Source: Trueperaceae bacterium (GTDB taxonomy: Bacteria; Deinococcota; Deinococci; Deinococcales; Trueperaceae). From it: DNA of 33,927 nt. Of the stretch, positions 1,414 through 21,095 are shown in pieces. The stretch is from the NCBI GenBank assembly GCA_035703635.1, contig DASSXV010000042.1, forward strand, positions 1 to 33,927, given 5' to 3'. Made by a program: the position numbers and the translations under genes. Each line of letters starts with the position of its first letter. The stretch's first letter is position 1. Below the pieces are notes generated by a model, which saw nothing but the letters and a program-made list of their open reading frames with translations, was not told the origin of the DNA and ran no database searches.

Positions 1414-4028
1414 CGGAAGCTGAGCAGCTGAGCGGCGTGCGGCCACTCGAGGCGCAGCTGTGGGGGGAAGTGCGCTTTTCACACGCAGGCGTGGCCGTCG
1501 AGCCGCCTTCTCACAAGGCCGCCGCCTTGCTTGCTTACCTCGTCGTTGCGCCAGCCGCCGTTCGGCGCGAGGAGCTCGCCGCCCTGTTGTGGAGCCCTGA
1601 TCGACTAGCGAACGTGCGTCAGGCGCTTTACACGCTGAGGTCGTTGCCTGGCGCGGATGAGTGGTTGGATGACGGCGTGAAACGCGTTAGCGTGCGCGCC
1701 GTTTCGGACGTCGGCCGATTGCGGGAGGCGGACGGGAACGACCTGGCCGCGCTCGTCGACGGGCTTGGCGGGACCGAACTGCTGGCAGGCTTCGGGGCGC
1801 GGCTCCCGAGCGAGTACCTCGAGTGGCTGACCCGTGAGCGTGCGAGCAGCGCCGACCTGGTGCGAAGTGCGTTAGCTGAACGCGCCGCCCAGCTCGAGGG
1901 TCAAGGGGAGGCGAAGCGGGCGCTCGAACTCACGGTGCGGGCTCAGGCTCTTGACCCGTACGACGAGGAGCTGCAGCGCTCCGCCATGCGCCTGGCCTAC
2001 GTCTCCGGCGCAGCTGACGTGGCGCTCGCGAGCTTCGCCGCGTTCACGGAGCGCCTGGCGGTCGACCTTGGTGCGGAGCCGAGCAGCGAGACGGCTGAGT
2101 TGGCGCGCCGCATCGAACGCCGTGAACCGCTCGGCCTGCGGGCGGCGCTGGCGGCCCTCAGCGACCTTGACCGCCGCACCTTGCAGGCATTGGCCCTGGC
2201 GCGCGGCGCGTTACGCGTGGACGGCCTCGCTAGCGTGCTGGAGCGGCCAGCATTCGAGTTGGTCGCCGACCTCGCCCGCTTGGCGGAGCGCGGGCTAATA
2301 GATGAGCACCTAGGGCTGAGTCCTGAGCAGCGCGCTGCCATCCTCCCTGGGCTCCCTGCGCCACTGAGGCGCCTCCTTAGCGAACGCATCGTGGCGGTGC
2401 TACGCAACGACGTAACCGCCGACCAGGGCGCATTAGCGCGCCACCTCCTGGCTGCTGGTGAGCGAGCAGAGGCAGCGAGCCGTGCGCTTGCAGGCGCTAG
2501 GGCAGAAGTGGAGCGTTCGCACGTCGAGGCCGCGGACGAACTCGCGTACCTCACGCTGTGGGCGGCGCCCTCAGAACCGACGCTGCGGCTCGAGGCCGTC
2601 CTGTTGCTCGAGCGCAACGCGGCCAGCCGCATGAACCTCGATGCTCAAGCTGACTTCCTCGATGAGGCAGAGCGGCTGGCGTGGGAGTTGCAGAGCGACG
2701 CCGCGCTCGCCGAGTGCAACGTCAGGCGCACCCGCTTCCTGCTCGCCCGCGGCCGCGTCGGCGAGGCGCTCGAGGAGGCACTCAAGGCGTTGGAGACGGC
2801 GCTGCGTATCACGGATGACAGCCTGGTCGCGCGCGCAAGGAACGCGGTCGGGGCGGCACACTTCTACGCAGGCGACCTTGACGGCGCGGCCGCCTCCTTC
2901 GCAGCCAGCCTTGCTGGCGCTGACGACGTCGAGCGCTACCGTGCGCACAACAACCTCGGCAGCATCAACGCCATGCGCGGGAGGCTAGACGAGTCGTACC
3001 ACCACTTCGACGAGGCCCTGACGCTGGCAAGGCGCCACTCGCAACACCTCGACGTAAGCGCGACCCTCAACAATCTCGCCGCCAGCGCCGAGCGCTTCGG
3101 CGATTACGCGCGGGCGGAGCGCCACTTCAAGGAGGGCATCACCGTCGCGCGGCGCGCCAATGCGCTTAGGCGCGAGGCGGAGATGCTCATCAACCTGGCC
3201 GTCGTCTACGGCCGCCAAGGTCAGCTTGGGCCCGCGTGGAACACCACGGCGGAGGTTGAGGTCCTGGCGCACGAGCTGGCCGATCGGCGCCTGAGCATGC
3301 GCGTGTCCGAGCAACGCAGCGAGATCAAGCGCCTCTGCGGCGACCTGCCCGGCGCGGTCGACGCCCTGAACGCCGCACTAGACCTCGCGACCTCGTTGGG
3401 TGACGAACGCAAGCGCCTCGCGCTCAGGGCGCAACTATTGGCGGCCGAGGCGCGCCTCGACCCGCGTGTGGTCCCACGACTTGAGCTGGCGATCCTAGAT
3501 CTGGAAGCCGCCCGACTCACCGACGTGGCGCCGTGGCTGAGGCTCGAGCTGGCGCTGTGCACCAGCGATGTCGCGGTCGCGCAGGCGCAACTGGCCGTGG
3601 TCGACGAGGGGCAGCTCAAGAGCGCGCACCAGCGCCTAGTGCGCGAGGTCGTCTGCATGCGCCTCGCACTGCTCCTTGGGGCCGATGCAGCCGTCAAGCG
3701 CGCGGGGTTAGAGGCGCGCGAACGACTCGCGCACGCTGGCCTCATTCGCGCCAGCCACGCTCACACCACCGGAGCGCCCCAAGTTGAGCGTGCCGAGGTG
3801 ATGATCGTCGAAGGCCCGAAGGCCCGCTATCTCGCTTGGCTACTCGAGCCGGACGCCCCACCGAGCTGGCCGCCCCCGCCTCCGCCGCCAGCCGTAGTGG
3901 CTGAGCTGCGGGAACAGGGAGCCGGCCTCCCTCGCGCCATGGCAGCCTCGCTGCTCGAACTACCTGCCGCCTGGCTGGACCCTCAGGGATGGCTCGGGCA
4001 TGGGTCCGGCTCTTTGACACCTCGTTGA
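1410..4028 (+). CDS. SARP/BTAD-type transcriptional regulator with C-terminal TPR array
   Basis: N-terminal wHTH-like segment ([29 protein letters not shown]), BTAD motifs ([31 protein letters not shown]), TPR repeats (NNLGSIN, NNLAAS, INLAVVY). TTG start at 1410 overlaps the tdk stop; exact start uncertain. Confidence 0.85.
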
Positions 4029-16058: not shown

Positions 16059-17372
16059 TCAGGGCGTCAGGCGCTGGGCGTCTCGTGGGAAAGCGCGGGC
16101 GAAGCGGATGTTGTGTATGCCCAATAGCAACGCCGTCAGCCGCTCCGCGCCGATCGCGAAGCCGCCATGCGGAGGCATGCCGTGCTTGAAGACCTCGATG
16201 TAGTCAGCGAACGCCGCCTCGTCCATGTTGCGCTTGCGCAACTCCTGCACGAGCACCTCAGGCCGGTGAACGCGCTGTCCTCCAGAGGTGATCTCGACCC
16301 CGCGGAAGATGAGGTCGAGGCCTCGCGTCAGGCCGTTGTCGAGCGGGTACGTATAGAACGGGCGCGCCGCCTGCGGGTAGTTCGTGACGAACACGAAGTC
16401 GGAGCCGTGCTCCTCCTTGGCCCAGCGGCCGATCAAGCGCTCGGCTTCCGGGTCGAGGTCCTTACCGCCCGAGGTGTGGCCGTAGCGTTCACTGACGAGT
16501 TCACGCGCGGCCAGCAGCGGTATGCGCGGGAACTTCACCGTGCGGTCCGGCATCTCTGCGCCCAACGTCGCCAATTCTGGGGCGCAGCGCTCCTCCACGC
16601 CCGCCAGCATGGACTTGAGGAGAGCCTCCTCCAAGTCCATCACTTCATCCTCGTTGGAGATGAAGCCGAACTCGACGTCGAGGGACAGGTACTCGGAGAG
16701 GTGACGGTGGGTGTGGCTCTTCTCGGCGCGGTAGACGGGCGCCGTCTCGTACACGCGCTCGAACACGCCGACCATGATCTGCTTGTAGAGCTGCGGTGAT
16801 TGTGCGAGGTAGGCGCGGCGGCCGTAGTAGTCGACCTCGAAGAGGTTAGCGCCCCCCTCGGCCCCTGCCGAAACGAGCTTGGGCGTGAAGATCTCGGTGA
16901 AGTCATGCGCGTCGAGGTACGCACGGAAGCCTCGCACTAGCTCGGCCTCGACCTTGAGTACGGCGCGGGTCTTGGGGCTGCGTACCGTCACGTGGCGGTA
17001 GGCAAGCAGCGTCTCAGGGTTGGCGGTCCATTCTTCCTTGGCCAACTCGACTGGTGGCGCCTGCGTCGCCTCGCTGATGACCTCGAGGGCGGAGCCCTGC
17101 ACCTCGAAGCCGCCTGGCGCCTTCTTGTGCGCCACTACCTTGCCGGCAACGCGGACGCTGCTCTCATGTAGCGGCAGGGCCGTGTCTTCGAAGACGACTT
17201 GCGCCACGCCGCTGCGGTCGCGGAGGAGCAAGAAACCGATGCCGCCGAGGTCGCGGCGGTTGAGAACCCAGCCCTGCAGCGTTACCTCTGCGCCGACGTG
17301 GTTGCCTAGGTCGCTTACCAGTACGCGCGCGGCTGGCTCTGACTCGTGCCCGCCCCCTGTGTTGCTCGCCAT
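16059..17372 (-). CDS. aspS: Archaeal-type non-discriminating aspartate--tRNA(Asp/Asn) ligase
   Basis: 437 aa with no GAD insert; RDLGG, KAPGG (Pro typical of ND enzymes), GAEGGANLF, YLAQSPQLYKQ, EITSGGQR, GMPPHGGFAIGAERL; GGAGG SD. Confidence 0.93.
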   Translation of the reverse strand: MASNTGGGHESEPAARVLVSDLGNHVGAEVTLQGWVLNRRDLGGIGFLLLRDRSGVAQVVFEDTALPLHESSVRVAGKVVAHKKAPGGFEVQGSALEVISEATQAPPVELAKEEWTANPETLLAYRHVTVRSPKTRAVLKVEAELVRGFRAYLDAHDFTEIFTPKLVSAGAEGGANLFEVDYYGRRAYLAQSPQLYKQIMVGVFERVYETAPVYRAEKSHTHRHLSEYLSLDVEFGFISNEDEVMDLEEALLKSMLAGVEERCAPELATLGAEMPDRTVKFPRIPLLAARELVSERYGHTSGGKDLDPEAERLIGRWAKEEHGSDFVFVTNYPQAARPFYTYPLDNGLTRGLDLIFRGVEITSGGQRVHRPEVLVQELRKRNMDEAAFADYIEVFKHGMPPHGGFAIGAERLTALLLGIHNIRFARAFPRDAQRLTP

Positions 17373-17404
17373 GGCCGTGCCTCCAGTTACCCGTTCAACA
17401 ATCG

Positions 17405-17440
17405 CGAAAGCCCCCGAGGAAGTGTGGTCCTCGGGGGCTT
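17405..17440 (-). terminator. Attenuator (3:4) hairpin in the aspS leader
   Basis: 13-bp perfect stem AAGCCCCCGAGGA / TCCTCGGGGGCTT, 7-nt loop, short U-tract, between the leader ORF and aspS. Confidence 0.75.
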
Positions 17441-17461
17441 CGATGACTATGAAGTACAGCG

Positions 17462-17518
17462 CTACGCCCCGAGCAGCCTCGAAGTGAGATTATCGTCTCG
17501 GCGGGAGTGCGTAGCCAT
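17462..17518 (-). CDS. Putative aspS leader peptide MATHSRRDDNLTSRLLGA (18 aa)
   Basis: ATG 7 nt after a -10 box; GAC GAT AAT at codons 8-10; its 3' end is complementary to the terminator 5' arm. Confidence 0.72.
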   Translation of the reverse strand: MATHSRRDDNLTSRLLGA

Positions 17519-17525
17519 GGGCGGA

Positions 17526-17554
17526 AGTGTAACAACTGCCGTACTGAGCGTCAA
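17526..17554 (-). promoter_or_regulatory. Sigma70-type promoter of the aspS leader
   Basis: TTGACG-17 bp-TACACT with an extended -10 TGn. Confidence 0.8.
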
Positions 17555-17594
17555 CTTCGACTAGCCGTTCGGGTGCGCGGCGGCTCATTCAGCG

Positions 17595-18017
17595 TCAGCG
17601 CTCCTCGATCAGCCCCTCCGTGGCGGCCAGGATGCGCGCGAGGTGCTCCCTGTCTTTCGGGCGGTTGAGCCGCTTCTTGAACGTGACCACCGCGGCGAGG
17701 GTTACGCATGGAACGCCAGCTACTAGTTCGGCGTGCTCGATGAGTTCATCGCCGTCGGCGCCTAACCAACCGTCGAAGAGCTCAACGTCGTCGTCGACCT
17801 CCACGACTTGGTCGATGTCGCCCTGCACGAGCCTGGCGGCGCCATGCTCCACTAGCTCGAGCGCGCGGTTCCACGCGGCGCGGCGGCAGACGATGTCCAG
17901 GTCGCCTGCCTCCTCCAGGATGCCGCGCAGCACGAGCGAGGCGGTCGAGTGTACGGCGTAGTCGCCTGCCGGGAGCTGAAGCTCTGCGAGTCTCTCCTGG
18001 ATCTGGGTAGCGTTCAC
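17595..18017 (-). CDS. Small nucleotidyltransferase-fold hypothetical protein
   Basis: YAVHSTASLVLRGI...GDLDI, later VELF, and C-terminal KKRLNRPKD. GTG start at 18017, 5 nt after TAAACT. The track's longer N-terminus overlaps the ankyrin gene. Confidence 0.65.
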   Translation of the reverse strand: MNATQIQERLAELQLPAGDYAVHSTASLVLRGILEEAGDLDIVCRRAAWNRALELVEHGAARLVQGDIDQVVEVDDDVELFDGWLGADGDELIEHAELVAGVPCVTLAAVVTFKKRLNRPKDREHLARILAATEGLIEER

Positions 18018-18493: not shown

Positions 18494-19957
18494 CTAGCCC
18501 TCGTGCAGCGCCTTGATGGCCTGGCGCACGCCAGCGCCGTAGGCCGGGTCGGCCTGGGTGCAGTGGCCGATGTGGCGTTCGATGGTGGCGGCGGACGCGC
18601 CCTTGATGGCGCGCGCCGTGTTGTCGAACAACGCCTGCTGCTGCTCAGCGTTCATGAGCCTGAACAGGTCGCCCGGCTGCTCGTAGTAGTTGCTGTCGTC
18701 CGCGCGGTAGTCGTGGCGGCCGGCGGTGCCAGACAGCGCCAAGGCCGGCTCTGCGTACTGCGGCTGGGCCTCCCAGTTGCCGTAACTGTTGGGGGTGTAA
18801 CCGGCGGTCGCACCGTGATTGCCGTCGACGCGCATCTGGCCGTCACGGTGGTAGGTGTTCGGGTGCGCGACCCCGCGCGGCTGGTTCACCGGAATCTGGT
18901 GGTGGTTGACGCCTACGCGGTAACGCGCGGCGTCACCGTACGAGAAGAGGCGCCCTTGCAGCATGCGATCAGGCGATACGCCGATACCAGGCACGAGGTT
19001 GGCTGGGGTGAAGGCGGCCTGCTCGACGTCGGCGAAGTAGTTCTCCGGATTGCGGTTCAGTTCGAACTCGCCAACCTCGATGAGGGGGTAGTCCTTCTTC
19101 GACCACACCTTCGTTACGTCGAACGGGTGGAAGCGGTAGTTGGCCGCCTCGGCCTCTGGCATTACCTGGATGTAGAACGTCCACTTGGGGAAGTCGCCGC
19201 GGTCGATGGCCTCGAGCAAGTCACGCTGCGACGACTCGCGGTCGTGCGCTACGAGCGCGGCCGCCTCGGCGTCCGTCAAGTTCTTGATGCCCTGCTGGGT
19301 GCGGAAGTGGAACTTCACCCAGAAGCGTTCACCGGCCGCGTTCCAGAAGGAGTAGGTGTGCGAACCGAAGCCGTGCATGTGGCGGTAACCGTCAGGGATG
19401 CCGCGGTCGGACATGAGCACCGTCACCTGGTGCAGCGCCTCCGGGAGGTTCGTCCAGAAGTCCCAGTTGTTCTCTGCCGAGCGCATGTTGGTTCGTGGGT
19501 CGCGCTTCACGGCGCGGTTCAGGTCGGGGAAGTGGTGAGGATCTCGGTGGAAGAACACGGGGGTGTTGTTGCCGACCACGTCCCAGTTGCCTTCTTCGGT
19601 GAAGAAGCGCAGTGCGAAACCGCGGATGTCCCGCTCGGCGTCCGCCGCGCCGCGTTCACCCGCGACGGTGGAGAAGCGCGCGAACATCTCCGTTTGCTTG
19701 CCGACCTGCGAGAAGACGGCCGCACGCGAGTACTTTGTGATGTCGTGGGTGACGGTGAACTTGCCCCAGGCGCCAGAACCCTTGGCGTGCATGCGGCGCT
19801 CTGGGATGACCTCGCGGCTGAAGTGCGCCAGCTTCTCGAGGAACCAGGCGTCCTGCAGGAGGATCGGGCCGCGCGGCCCGGCGGTGATGGCGTTGTCGTT
19901 GTCTGCGATGGGCGCGCCAGCGGCAGTCGTCAGTGGCTTCTTGGCATCGTCGTTGAT
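18494..19957 (-). CDS. katA: Monofunctional small-subunit heme catalase, apparent ATC start
   Basis: [15 protein letters not shown] (distal His), [25 protein letters not shown] (proximal Tyr). AAGGAG SD lies 7 nt before an in-frame ATC at 19957. Confidence 0.93.
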
Positions 19958-20102
19958 GGGGTGTCTCCTTTTCTCACGTTGCGCATGTTCGGCTTGCGGT
20001 AGGTGCGCGCCCGGCCAGTGGCTGGCTGCCCGAGCTAGTACTCCCAGTATGCCATCGGTTGCGTGAGAGCCGTGTTCCGGGCGCTGGCGCTCGGCGCCGC
20101 CG

Positions 20103-21095
20103 TTAGGTGGGTCGTTCGAGGAAGCGCTGCAGCGCGCGCATGGCGGCAAGCGCCCGCGGGAAGCCTACGAACATGGCGCTGTGGATGATGACCTCGCGCA
20201 CCTGGCGCTCGCTAGCGCCCGACCGCATTGCGCCACGGAAGTGCGTGGGGAGTTCGTTGACGCCGTCCGCCGCGGTAAGGAGGGCGACTGCTATGAGCTC
20301 GCGCGTGGCTAGGTCGAGGCCAGCTCTGGCGAAGACTTCGCCGTAGGCGACGCGCTCGACCAGTTCGCCGAGATCGGTGTCGGCCGCCGCCAACGCCGCG
20401 CTGATGCGGTCAGCTTGCGAACCCCAGATGGCCTCACGGGGGTCGCCTGCATGGTGCTCGACGAGGAAAGCGACGACGCCGGAGTGCACCGTAAGTTGCA
20501 CTTTGCTGCCGTTGGCGGCGTTGGATAGGCCCAAACCGCTGCCCAGGGGTAGTGGCGCGTCGCTAAGCGGGAACTGCACCCCCTGCGTCGTCACGCGGCA
20601 GCCTGGCTCGAGCGCGAGGAGGCTGACCGTCGTGCCTGGCGCCAACTCGCGCTCGAGAACCGCGGCGGGAGTAGCGACGTGTGCCTCGTGGTTCCCCGCG
20701 AACAGCGCTACTTCGCGCCCCTCCACCGCTAGGCGACCAGCGATGAGCAACGCGCCGAAGCTCTGGTCGAGGCGGCTTCCGAACGCACCGACTACGGTCG
20801 CGCGTGTAGCGCCCCGCGTCCACGCGGCCGCGAGAGCGAGCTCGAGGTCAAGCTCGTCCTTCGCCTGTGGGTGGCGCTCGACGGGCACCTGTTCGTAGCG
20901 TTCGAGGTCGCGGGCCTCGACGCTGTCTAGATCGCCGACGATCAGGTCAGGGGTGACGCCCAGGATGCGAGCGTGCGCCAACCCGCCATCTGCTGCGATG
21001 ACCAGGTCCTGTGCGGCCAGCAGCAGCGGCCAGAGTTGCGGTGCTGGCAGGGTGCCGCCAGCGAGTACAAGTGCCGTGCGTTGCGCGGGTGTCAT
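20103..21095 (-). CDS. thiN: Thiamine pyrophosphokinase fused to a C-terminal carboxymuconolactone-decarboxylase (CMD/AhpD-like) domain
   Basis: [35 protein letters not shown]; then [21 protein letters not shown]...H..GA...G...EVIIH...FVGFP. ATG overlaps the upstream stop. Confidence 0.85.

Follow-up and report, generated by a model that had tools for sequence, protein, structure and literature searches.

A putative leader-peptide attenuator reading Asp and Asn codons before the archaeal-type aspartyl-tRNA synthetase gene of Deinococcales

The tRNA-dependent route to asparagine takes its substrate from a non-discriminating aspartyl-tRNA synthetase (AspRS). A leader peptide reading both Asp and Asn codons would tie the level of such an enzyme to the charging of both its products, and would be the simplest sensor to place on a leaderless mRNA. 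Is the short open reading frame that precedes the AspRS gene (aspS) of a Trueperaceae bacterium a sensor of this kind? We addressed this question in a contig of 33,927 nucleotides, referred to as the window, for which an earlier sequence-only reading had proposed an attenuation logic like that of the trp, his and pheST leaders. From sequence comparison and modelled folds we consider it probable that the aspS leader is a ribosome-mediated (trp-type) transcription attenuator of an archaeal-type, non-discriminating AspRS gene. Translation of the leader, termination at its hairpin and a response to tRNA charging are the steps of this model that we infer.

The aspS gene and its leader

The aspS gene (16059..17372, minus strand) encodes a protein of 437 aa that family models identify as an archaeal-type aspartate--tRNA(Asn) ligase. 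The product scores 542.3 bits against NF003483 (cut-off 353) and 378.7 bits against TIGR00458 (cut-off 368.4), and Pfam places tRNA-synt_2 and an OB fold within it. Judged from the family models alone, both of them matched above cut-off, the window AspRS would be of the non-discriminating type, as the sequence-only reading had assumed. Its nearest named relatives are found in Trueperaceae MAGs (72-77% identity), followed by Deinococcus species (61-62%). On the same strand, a 232-aa ORF without a family match lies upstream of the leader, and a CsgG-like gene lies downstream of aspS. Elsewhere in the window (18494-20149, minus strand) is a catalase-family gene (HPII model, residues 65-469, 427 bits, below the model cut-off).

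The host genome has a G+C content of 66% and also carries a bacterial-type AspRS, an AsnRS and gatB. As it contains three asnB-like genes, the tRNA route may not be its sole source of asparagine; asnA was not found in the host genome, at an assembly completeness of 97.65%. There are two full-length and near-equal matches to gatB (474 and 481 bits, at G000:C47:3580-4983 and G000:C48:158-1561), which may be a duplication or reflect strain heterogeneity of the assembly. At asnS (L001 3140-3166, G000:C72), the sequence TGTTACACT is followed 7 nt later by the gene's own ATG, and hence the asnS mRNA is probably leaderless and without an attenuator. The extended -10 string at asnS is identical to that of the aspS leader promoter.

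The promoter, start codon and leader ORF described in the sequence-only reading were all found on the minus strand. The promoter is of the sigma-70 type, with a -35 hexamer TTGACG (17549..17554), a 17-nt spacer and a -10 hexamer TACACT (17526..17531) that is preceded by TG, making it an extended -10. It is the sole promoter-like site between 16000 and 19000 (one found in 3 kb compared to 0.3 +/- 0.5 expected from shuffles), and its TTGAC is kept in relatives. The leader ORF (17462..17518, minus strand) begins with an ATG at 17518, 7 nt past the -10, and comprises 18 codons, MATHSRRDDNLTSRLLGA, ending in a TAG at 17464-17462. With its ATG only 7 nt after the -10, the leader mRNA is probably leaderless. 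The distance from -10 to ATG is 6-9 nt in all 29 loci caught by the search pattern, namely 28 relatives and the window locus. A genome search revealed no second copy, so that the aspS leader is single-copy in its host.

The control codons GAC GAT AAT (Asp-Asp-Asn) lie at 17489..17497 on the minus strand. As the sequence-only reading had cautioned, the window leader has only three of them. Behind them, the last codons of the ORF contain region 2, CTCGGGG (17467..17473, minus strand; leader nt 46-52), the letters of which are also the core of the 3' arm of the hairpin that follows. This hairpin begins 20 bases past the leader stop and is rich in G+C. Its 5' arm is region 3, GAAGCCCCCGAGGA (17428..17441, minus strand), and its 3' arm is region 4, TCCTCGGGGGCTTT (17407..17420, minus strand), both assigned from fold and covariation. 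The hairpin, previously described as one of 13 bp, contains 13 Watson-Crick pairs and one G-U pair (17441-17407), has a 7-nt loop and folds with -27.2 kcal/mol in RNAfold. The 149-nt leader as a whole folds with -65.4 kcal/mol (z = -4.2), and none of 200 shuffles did as well.

The complementary segments on which the attenuation proposal had been built are likewise present. GCTACGC (leader nt 4-10) can pair with GCGTAGC (nt 52-58), CCGAG (nt 18-22) with CTCGG (nt 46-50), and CTCGGGG (17473-17467) with the CCCCGAG of the hairpin 5' arm. A candidate region 1, CTTCGAG (17478..17484, minus strand), is a local partner of region 2 in the MFE structure of the leader, and it is a weak one.

Following the hairpin is a T-poor tail (17399..17406, minus strand). 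Of the 8-nt intervals that begin 0-2 nt behind the final G-run of the 3' arm, the best holds 3 T. The letters of the tail, CGCGATTG, lead on to the Shine-Dalgarno sequence GGAGG of aspS (17380..17384, minus strand) and then to the aspS ATG. The short U-tract had also been given as a caveat, and with only 3 T in 8 the canonical terminator rule does not call this hairpin.

Distribution across Deinococcales and Asp/Asn codon content

We compared the best 30 loci from an orthologue search of 40 related genomes together with nine named Deinococcales, giving 39 loci, three of them duplicates. A promoter, short ORF and hairpin precede the orthologous aspS in 38 of the 39. The ORF in each of these starts a few bases downstream of a TTGAC-type promoter, and a G+C-rich hairpin lies between it and the gene. 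The loci provide 35 distinct leaders from five families. Leaders of different families are too short and too divergent to align; all five have the position, the gene and the architecture in common. Furthermore, the leader accompanies aspS despite a differing upstream gene, as can be seen from the 232-aa gene, which only 16 of the 38 other loci possess. One locus from the same genus (L013, about 2066-2150, minus strand) is without a leader, and aspS there abuts an upstream gene of the 232-aa type, which suggests that the attenuator has been lost.

The sequence-only reading had advised a search of related aspS upstream regions for conserved Asp and Asn codons, and this enrichment was borne out. 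Asp and Asn together make up 119 of 564 leader residues (21.1%), in comparison to 7.8% in the long ORFs of the host genome. Adjacent Asp/Asn residues occur in 28 of 35 leaders and in only 3 of 70 translations of the other two frames. Asn is present in 34 of the 35 leaders and Asp in 32; three leaders contain Asn without Asp and one (L015) contains Asp without Asn. Typical Trueperaceae peptides read ..TDDNSDTRHLGA; Deinococcus peptides include MFAAHNNVNDDPC (L035) and ..VNVNDDPR, and families with small genomes have MRGLLNNDR, MLRADDNL and MGPLIGNNAG. The leaders L028, L034, L015 and L011 are poor in Asp and Asn. Between families the amino acids are kept while the codons vary (AAT/AAC, GAT/GAC). 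Leader P-values overstate independence, as the genomes are kin, and on this comparison of sequences the weight is placed on the pattern across families instead.

Within the Trueperaceae, 23 leaders could be aligned. The N-terminal half of the peptide is unconserved. One codon, the third of the control codons in the window, is AAT in 19 leaders and GAT in four, so that columns A29 and T30 are invariant and the codon reads NAT in 23 of 23. As far as this alignment goes, an Asp codon and an Asn codon can stand in for each other at this one place. Among all leader Asn codons AAT accounts for 37 of 52, compared to 4.5% genome-wide. A close relative of the window locus (L010, 1355-1474), with a 95% identical AspRS, reads GAC GTT AAT (D-V-N), a single change having taken away the middle Asp codon.

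These data bear on which amino acid the leader would sense. One reading, which on these sequences we hold to be evenly balanced between right and wrong, is that the leader is a bivalent sensor for the two tRNA substrates of one enzyme and represents the ancestral aspS2 control of the whole order Deinococcales. If so, codons ending in U, which are rare in a genome of 66% G+C, would sharpen the response. Alternatively, the leader might essentially be an asparagine sensor, with the enzyme regulated for its role in making Asn-tRNA(Asn) and the Asp codons incidental or tolerated, GAY being one transition away from AAY. The near-universal presence of Asn and the three leaders that have it without Asp would fit such a sensor. 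So would several short Thermaceae-type leaders (L030), where a stall on the Asn codons would leave region 2 free and a stall on the later Asp codon would cover it, and the T-box leaders of Chloroflexota homologues (see below), all of which show, read by eye, an AAC near the expected place of the specifier. Asp, however, is found in 32 of 35 leaders and usually beside Asn, and it makes up two of the three control codons in the window. Moreover, the invariant NAT codon is GAT in four of 23 Trueperaceae leaders, so that Asp can occupy the key position, and L015 does with Asp and no Asn. We therefore regard a pure asparagine sensor as unlikely.

A leader of this kind had been listed before. The sequence-only reading knew of no described leader-peptide attenuator for this type of aspS, and here it must be corrected. 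Start sites of Deinococcus deserti were mapped by de Groot et al. 2014 (Genome Biol Evol, PMC4007540), whose Table S9 lists Deide_10019, MFAALANNNDNDPH, as a putative leader peptide of the gene for "Aspartyl-tRNA synthetase, non-discriminating". The start site listed for it is the A of the leader ATG (PMC4007540). As described there, Deide_10019 resembles the window leader in belonging to the same type of gene (a 429-aa AspRS, annotated as non-discriminating) in the same order of bacteria; it is a short N/D-rich peptide with predicted transcription attenuation, adjoining an archaeal-type non-discriminating AspRS gene. The Deinococcus-type leader L035 links this form to the Trueperaceae form. 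Compared with the Deide_10019 peptide as listed, the Trueperaceae leader is from another family, is longer (18 codons), has only three control codons and a weaker U-tract, and carries its stop codon inside region 2, not before it.

The account of Deide_10019 in these tables consists of the peptide and its start site; a structure model, a comparison across families and a functional test are not part of that account (PMC4007540). A full-text literature search, which leaves subscription journals mostly uncovered, gave no other report of such a leader. The window leader is hence a family-level addition to a leader already annotated in Deinococcus, neither a new kind of element nor the first for this gene. 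What is new is the comparison of five families, to which a one-line supplementary annotation in one Deinococcus species is now extended, along with the structure model, the invariant NAT codon with its Asp/Asn interchange, the preference for U-ending codons and the contrast with T-box leaders. This is of use for annotation and for the choice of an experimental system, and is not a new principle.

Terminator, antiterminator and a model for attenuation

The sequence-only reading had also asked for covarying stems, and the outcome differs between the three helices. In the Trueperaceae alignment the terminator helix is paired in 82.8% of cells and six of its 14 pairs change on both sides. Its covariation score was reached by none of 500 shuffles, controls with the helix slid along the alignment gave 36-58% pairing, and RNAalifold recovered the core of the same helix unaided. 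The pairing of region 2 with region 3 is kept in 95.7% of cells, compared to 33-71% when slid. Only one of its pairs changes on both sides, and its score was reached by 46 of 500 shuffles. As the antiterminator hardly varies, the evidence for it is one of conservation rather than covariation: the 2:3 pairing is conserved, not covarying. In one relative (L019) regions 2, 3 and 4 share one change (CTTCGGG / CCCGAAG / CTTCGGGG).

Outside the alignment, the best partner of the hairpin 5' arm lies at or next to the leader stop codon in 31 of 35 leaders, and this partner beats at least 95% of mononucleotide shuffles in 20 of 35. Since runs of G and C pair easily in these genomes, we give preference to position and conservation over the per-sequence shuffle test. 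Automatic picking of the hairpin was poor for L036, L037 and L047, and these were read by eye.

The pairing of region 1 with region 2, which a complete classical model requires in order to occupy region 2 on an untranslated leader, fared less well. The local helix CTTCGAG:CTCGGGG is 69.6% paired across relatives, which is not above shuffles. For helices between the 5' end and the stop, analogous to the GCTACGC:GCGTAGC of the window, shuffled partners matched the helix length in 8-100% of trials over all 35 sequences. Apparent covariation of region 1:2 picked out by eye (GACGC:GCGTC, CGCGGC:GCCGCG and GAATG:CGTTC) was dropped, as shuffles do as well.

The spacing between control codons and region 2 fits a stalled ribosome. 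The Asp/Asn run ends 7-15 nt ahead of region 2, and 12-14 nt ahead in 17 of 23 Trueperaceae leaders, a spacing that is roughly how far a ribosome extends past its A site. We simulated folding with the ribosome in two positions. With nt 1-43 masked, as in a stall on AAT, the free RNA is predicted to form a long antiterminator (-24.7 kcal/mol), and with the ribosome at the stop codon it is predicted to form the terminator (-30.5 kcal/mol). Representatives of other families behave alike. In the full-length MFE structure (-50.9), the leader ORF is self-closed by GCTACGC:GCGTAGC with the terminator alongside.

Much of the proposed attenuation logic thus holds: the layout in 38 of 39 loci, the in-frame Asp and Asn codons, the covariation of the terminator, the 2:3 pairing and the simulated folds all speak for it. 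Its region 1:2 hairpin did not rise above shuffles, and covariation gave no support to the local 1:2 helix.

In the model that we favour, transcription would begin at the A of the leader ATG or beside it, and the 18-codon leader would be translated by a ribosome while the RNA is still emerging. With Asp-tRNA(Asp) and Asn-tRNA(Asn) plentiful, the ribosome would reach the TAG and cover region 2, the end of which is 2 nt short of the stop; region 3 would then pair with region 4 and transcription would halt before aspS. With either charged tRNA scarce, the ribosome would stall on GAC-GAT-AAT with its 3' edge about 13 nt further on, not quite at region 2. The free region 2 would pair with region 3 once this has been made, no terminator would form and aspS would be transcribed. 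More AspRS would then yield more Asp-tRNA(Asp) and Asp-tRNA(Asn), the latter being turned into Asn-tRNA(Asn) by GatCAB. Three features of the structure model offer positions that can be tested: the NAT codon that never varies, the placing of region 2 at the stop codon, and the change shared by regions 2, 3 and 4 of L019.

A second alternative concerns termination in the window. The hairpin might be an inefficient terminator here, with the leader acting in some other way. It could be a small RNA or peptide in its own right, it could affect RNA stability, or its -10-like GATAAT could pause RNA polymerase or start a second transcript. The short U-tract of the window would agree with this. A tail rich in T (at least 5 T in 8 just after the stem) is lacking in ten of 35 leaders, and the window's clade fails with 3 T. 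In addition, GACGATAAT is conserved at the level of nucleotides, third positions included, its GATAAT resembles a -10 hexamer, and the bias towards AAT among leader Asn codons points the same way. In D. deserti, furthermore, the table of start sites gives the AspRS gene a second start at -93, which lies about 40 nt downstream of the first one, within the last part of the leader ORF (PMC4007540).

Set against these points are the tails of the relatives. A T-rich tail by this rule is present in 25 of 35 leaders, and in AT-rich relatives it takes the form of a long, canonical T-run. Leaders of other families (L030, L037) use AAC and GAC and have no -10-like string, so that there the amino acid is conserved and not the hexamer. 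The Asp/Asn enrichment is restricted to the frame of the ORF, which argues for translation, and the N-terminal half of the peptide is unconserved. Taken together, we consider this alternative improbable and retain transcription attenuation as the preferred reading.

The published D. deserti data provide a further comparison. In the untreated NI library, Table S2 counts 117 sense reads for the leader (45 nt) and 118 for the gene (1290 nt; PMC4007540). By our own arithmetic from these listed counts the leader has about 28 times more reads per base than the gene, an excess to which the 5' bias of the library could contribute. As far as the listed counts go, the excess is consistent with frequent early termination. 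As a side point, if the D. deserti leader codons at this place are GAT AAT, a -10-like hexamer would lie at the right distance for the -93 start.

Public sequencing runs holding the stretch number 20, with five of them recorded as RNA, and we examined four of these RNA runs (X15, X17, X18 and X19). All four are assembled contigs, a form of data from which starts, ends and levels are not readable. X15 covers every bin and may contain DNA, and one exact contig of X17 spans 17433-17647, across the promoter.

A different arrangement was seen in one small-genome genus (L036, 1406-1491; L037, 2801-2866, minus strand). The T-run is absent and the hairpin runs into AAGGAGG, the ribosome-binding site of aspS. 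Translation may be the controlled step in these two leaders, or their termination may do without a U-tract.

Relation to known attenuators, T-box leaders and other sites

The aspS leader resembles the trpL, hisL, pheL, thrL and pheM (pheST) leaders in having a short ORF with relevant codons, a terminator and antiterminator that overlap, and the position of the ribosome as the sensor. With pheST it shares a tRNA synthetase gene as its target, and with the thr and ilv leaders the reading of two amino acids. In contrast to the enterobacterial leaders, which are led by a Shine-Dalgarno sequence, the aspS leader has a leaderless start. It also differs from them in having only three control codons, in lacking a demonstrable 1:2 pause hairpin and in that its two sensed amino acids correspond to two tRNA substrates of a single enzyme.

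A third alternative is a switch in the RNA that works independently of translation by binding tRNA or protein, as a T-box does or a thrS-like operator to which the synthetase binds. Homologues of aspS in Chloroflexota give this idea some footing, as they carry T-box leaders and tRNA-sensing control thus exists for this type of gene. At the window locus, however, an Rfam search of 16900-18000 at E-values up to 10 returned no T-box, the best E-values being 0.55-0.77 with none of the matches relevant. A T-box would not fit into so short a leader, and none can be recognised in its sequence. The conserved features are, moreover, an ATG at the start of the transcript, an open frame and Asp/Asn codons in that frame only. 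A T-box (RF00230) was accordingly rejected for the window, which shows neither a covariance-model match nor a T-box sequence, and we rate any such switch as very improbable there compared with the ribosome-mediated attenuator.

Outside the Deinococcales, Rfam at the gathering score gave no T-box in 20 loci. With a laxer search of eight of those 20 loci a T-box was found in four Chloroflexota homologues (E 4e-5 to 7e-17, below the gathering score), namely L053 (867-1033), L055 (842-1107), L056 (831-1160) and L060 (813-1100). The AAC that we read by eye in the Chloroflexota leaders would mean T-boxes with an Asn specifier. These T-box leaders (RF00230) share with the aspS leader the type of gene, the dependence on tRNA charging and the choice between terminator and antiterminator; they differ in that uncharged tRNA is sensed by RNA-RNA contact, with no translation. 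If our reading of the aspS leader is true, two unrelated sensors of tRNA charge, a leader peptide and a T-box, would have converged on one synthetase.

Six Actinomycetota homologues (L054, L057, L058, L059, L062 and L065) contain, about 100 nt before position 1201, the string GGTGGCAC(C/A)GCGA, which we take to be typical of T-box leaders. None of these six loci reached the gathering score, and with E allowed up to 0.1 Rfam still matched no T-box in L058, L059 and L062.

Upstream ORFs that are rich in Asp and Asn and have RERT or WERA as their last residues were also noticed before the aspS genes of a Ktedonobacterales MAG (L078, about 1010-1070), a Chloroflexi MAG (L094, about 960-1025) and a Haliangiales MAG (L096, about 825-870). 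The peptides read MDGDDDNTAIGDADRRERT, ..GDANRWERA and MSNIDGDDPRERT. The ORFs of L078 and L094 lie downstream of a T-box-like terminator, and these two loci may represent a T-box and a leader peptide in tandem.

Finally, we scanned the host genome (2.9 Mb) for short ORFs (5-40 codons) that have their ATG 6-8 nt past a promoter and a strong hairpin behind them. In its strict form the scan returned four sites, lying before aspS, ilvB-ilvN, pheS and leuS. The leader before ilvB-ilvN is MTVSRVGATISWGLITSSWVRAG (G000:C41:29999, plus strand; L124, about 100-277), that before pheS is MRSPLASQPFTR (G000:C29:45546, plus strand; L125) and that before leuS is MNEAPARKAATERLATRPDAPPR (G000:C74:48717, minus strand; L126). 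Control codons are less obvious in these three. The Trueperaceae genome would hence use the same style of control before ilvBN, pheS and leuS, and the three sites parallel entries in the published list of D. deserti leader peptides.
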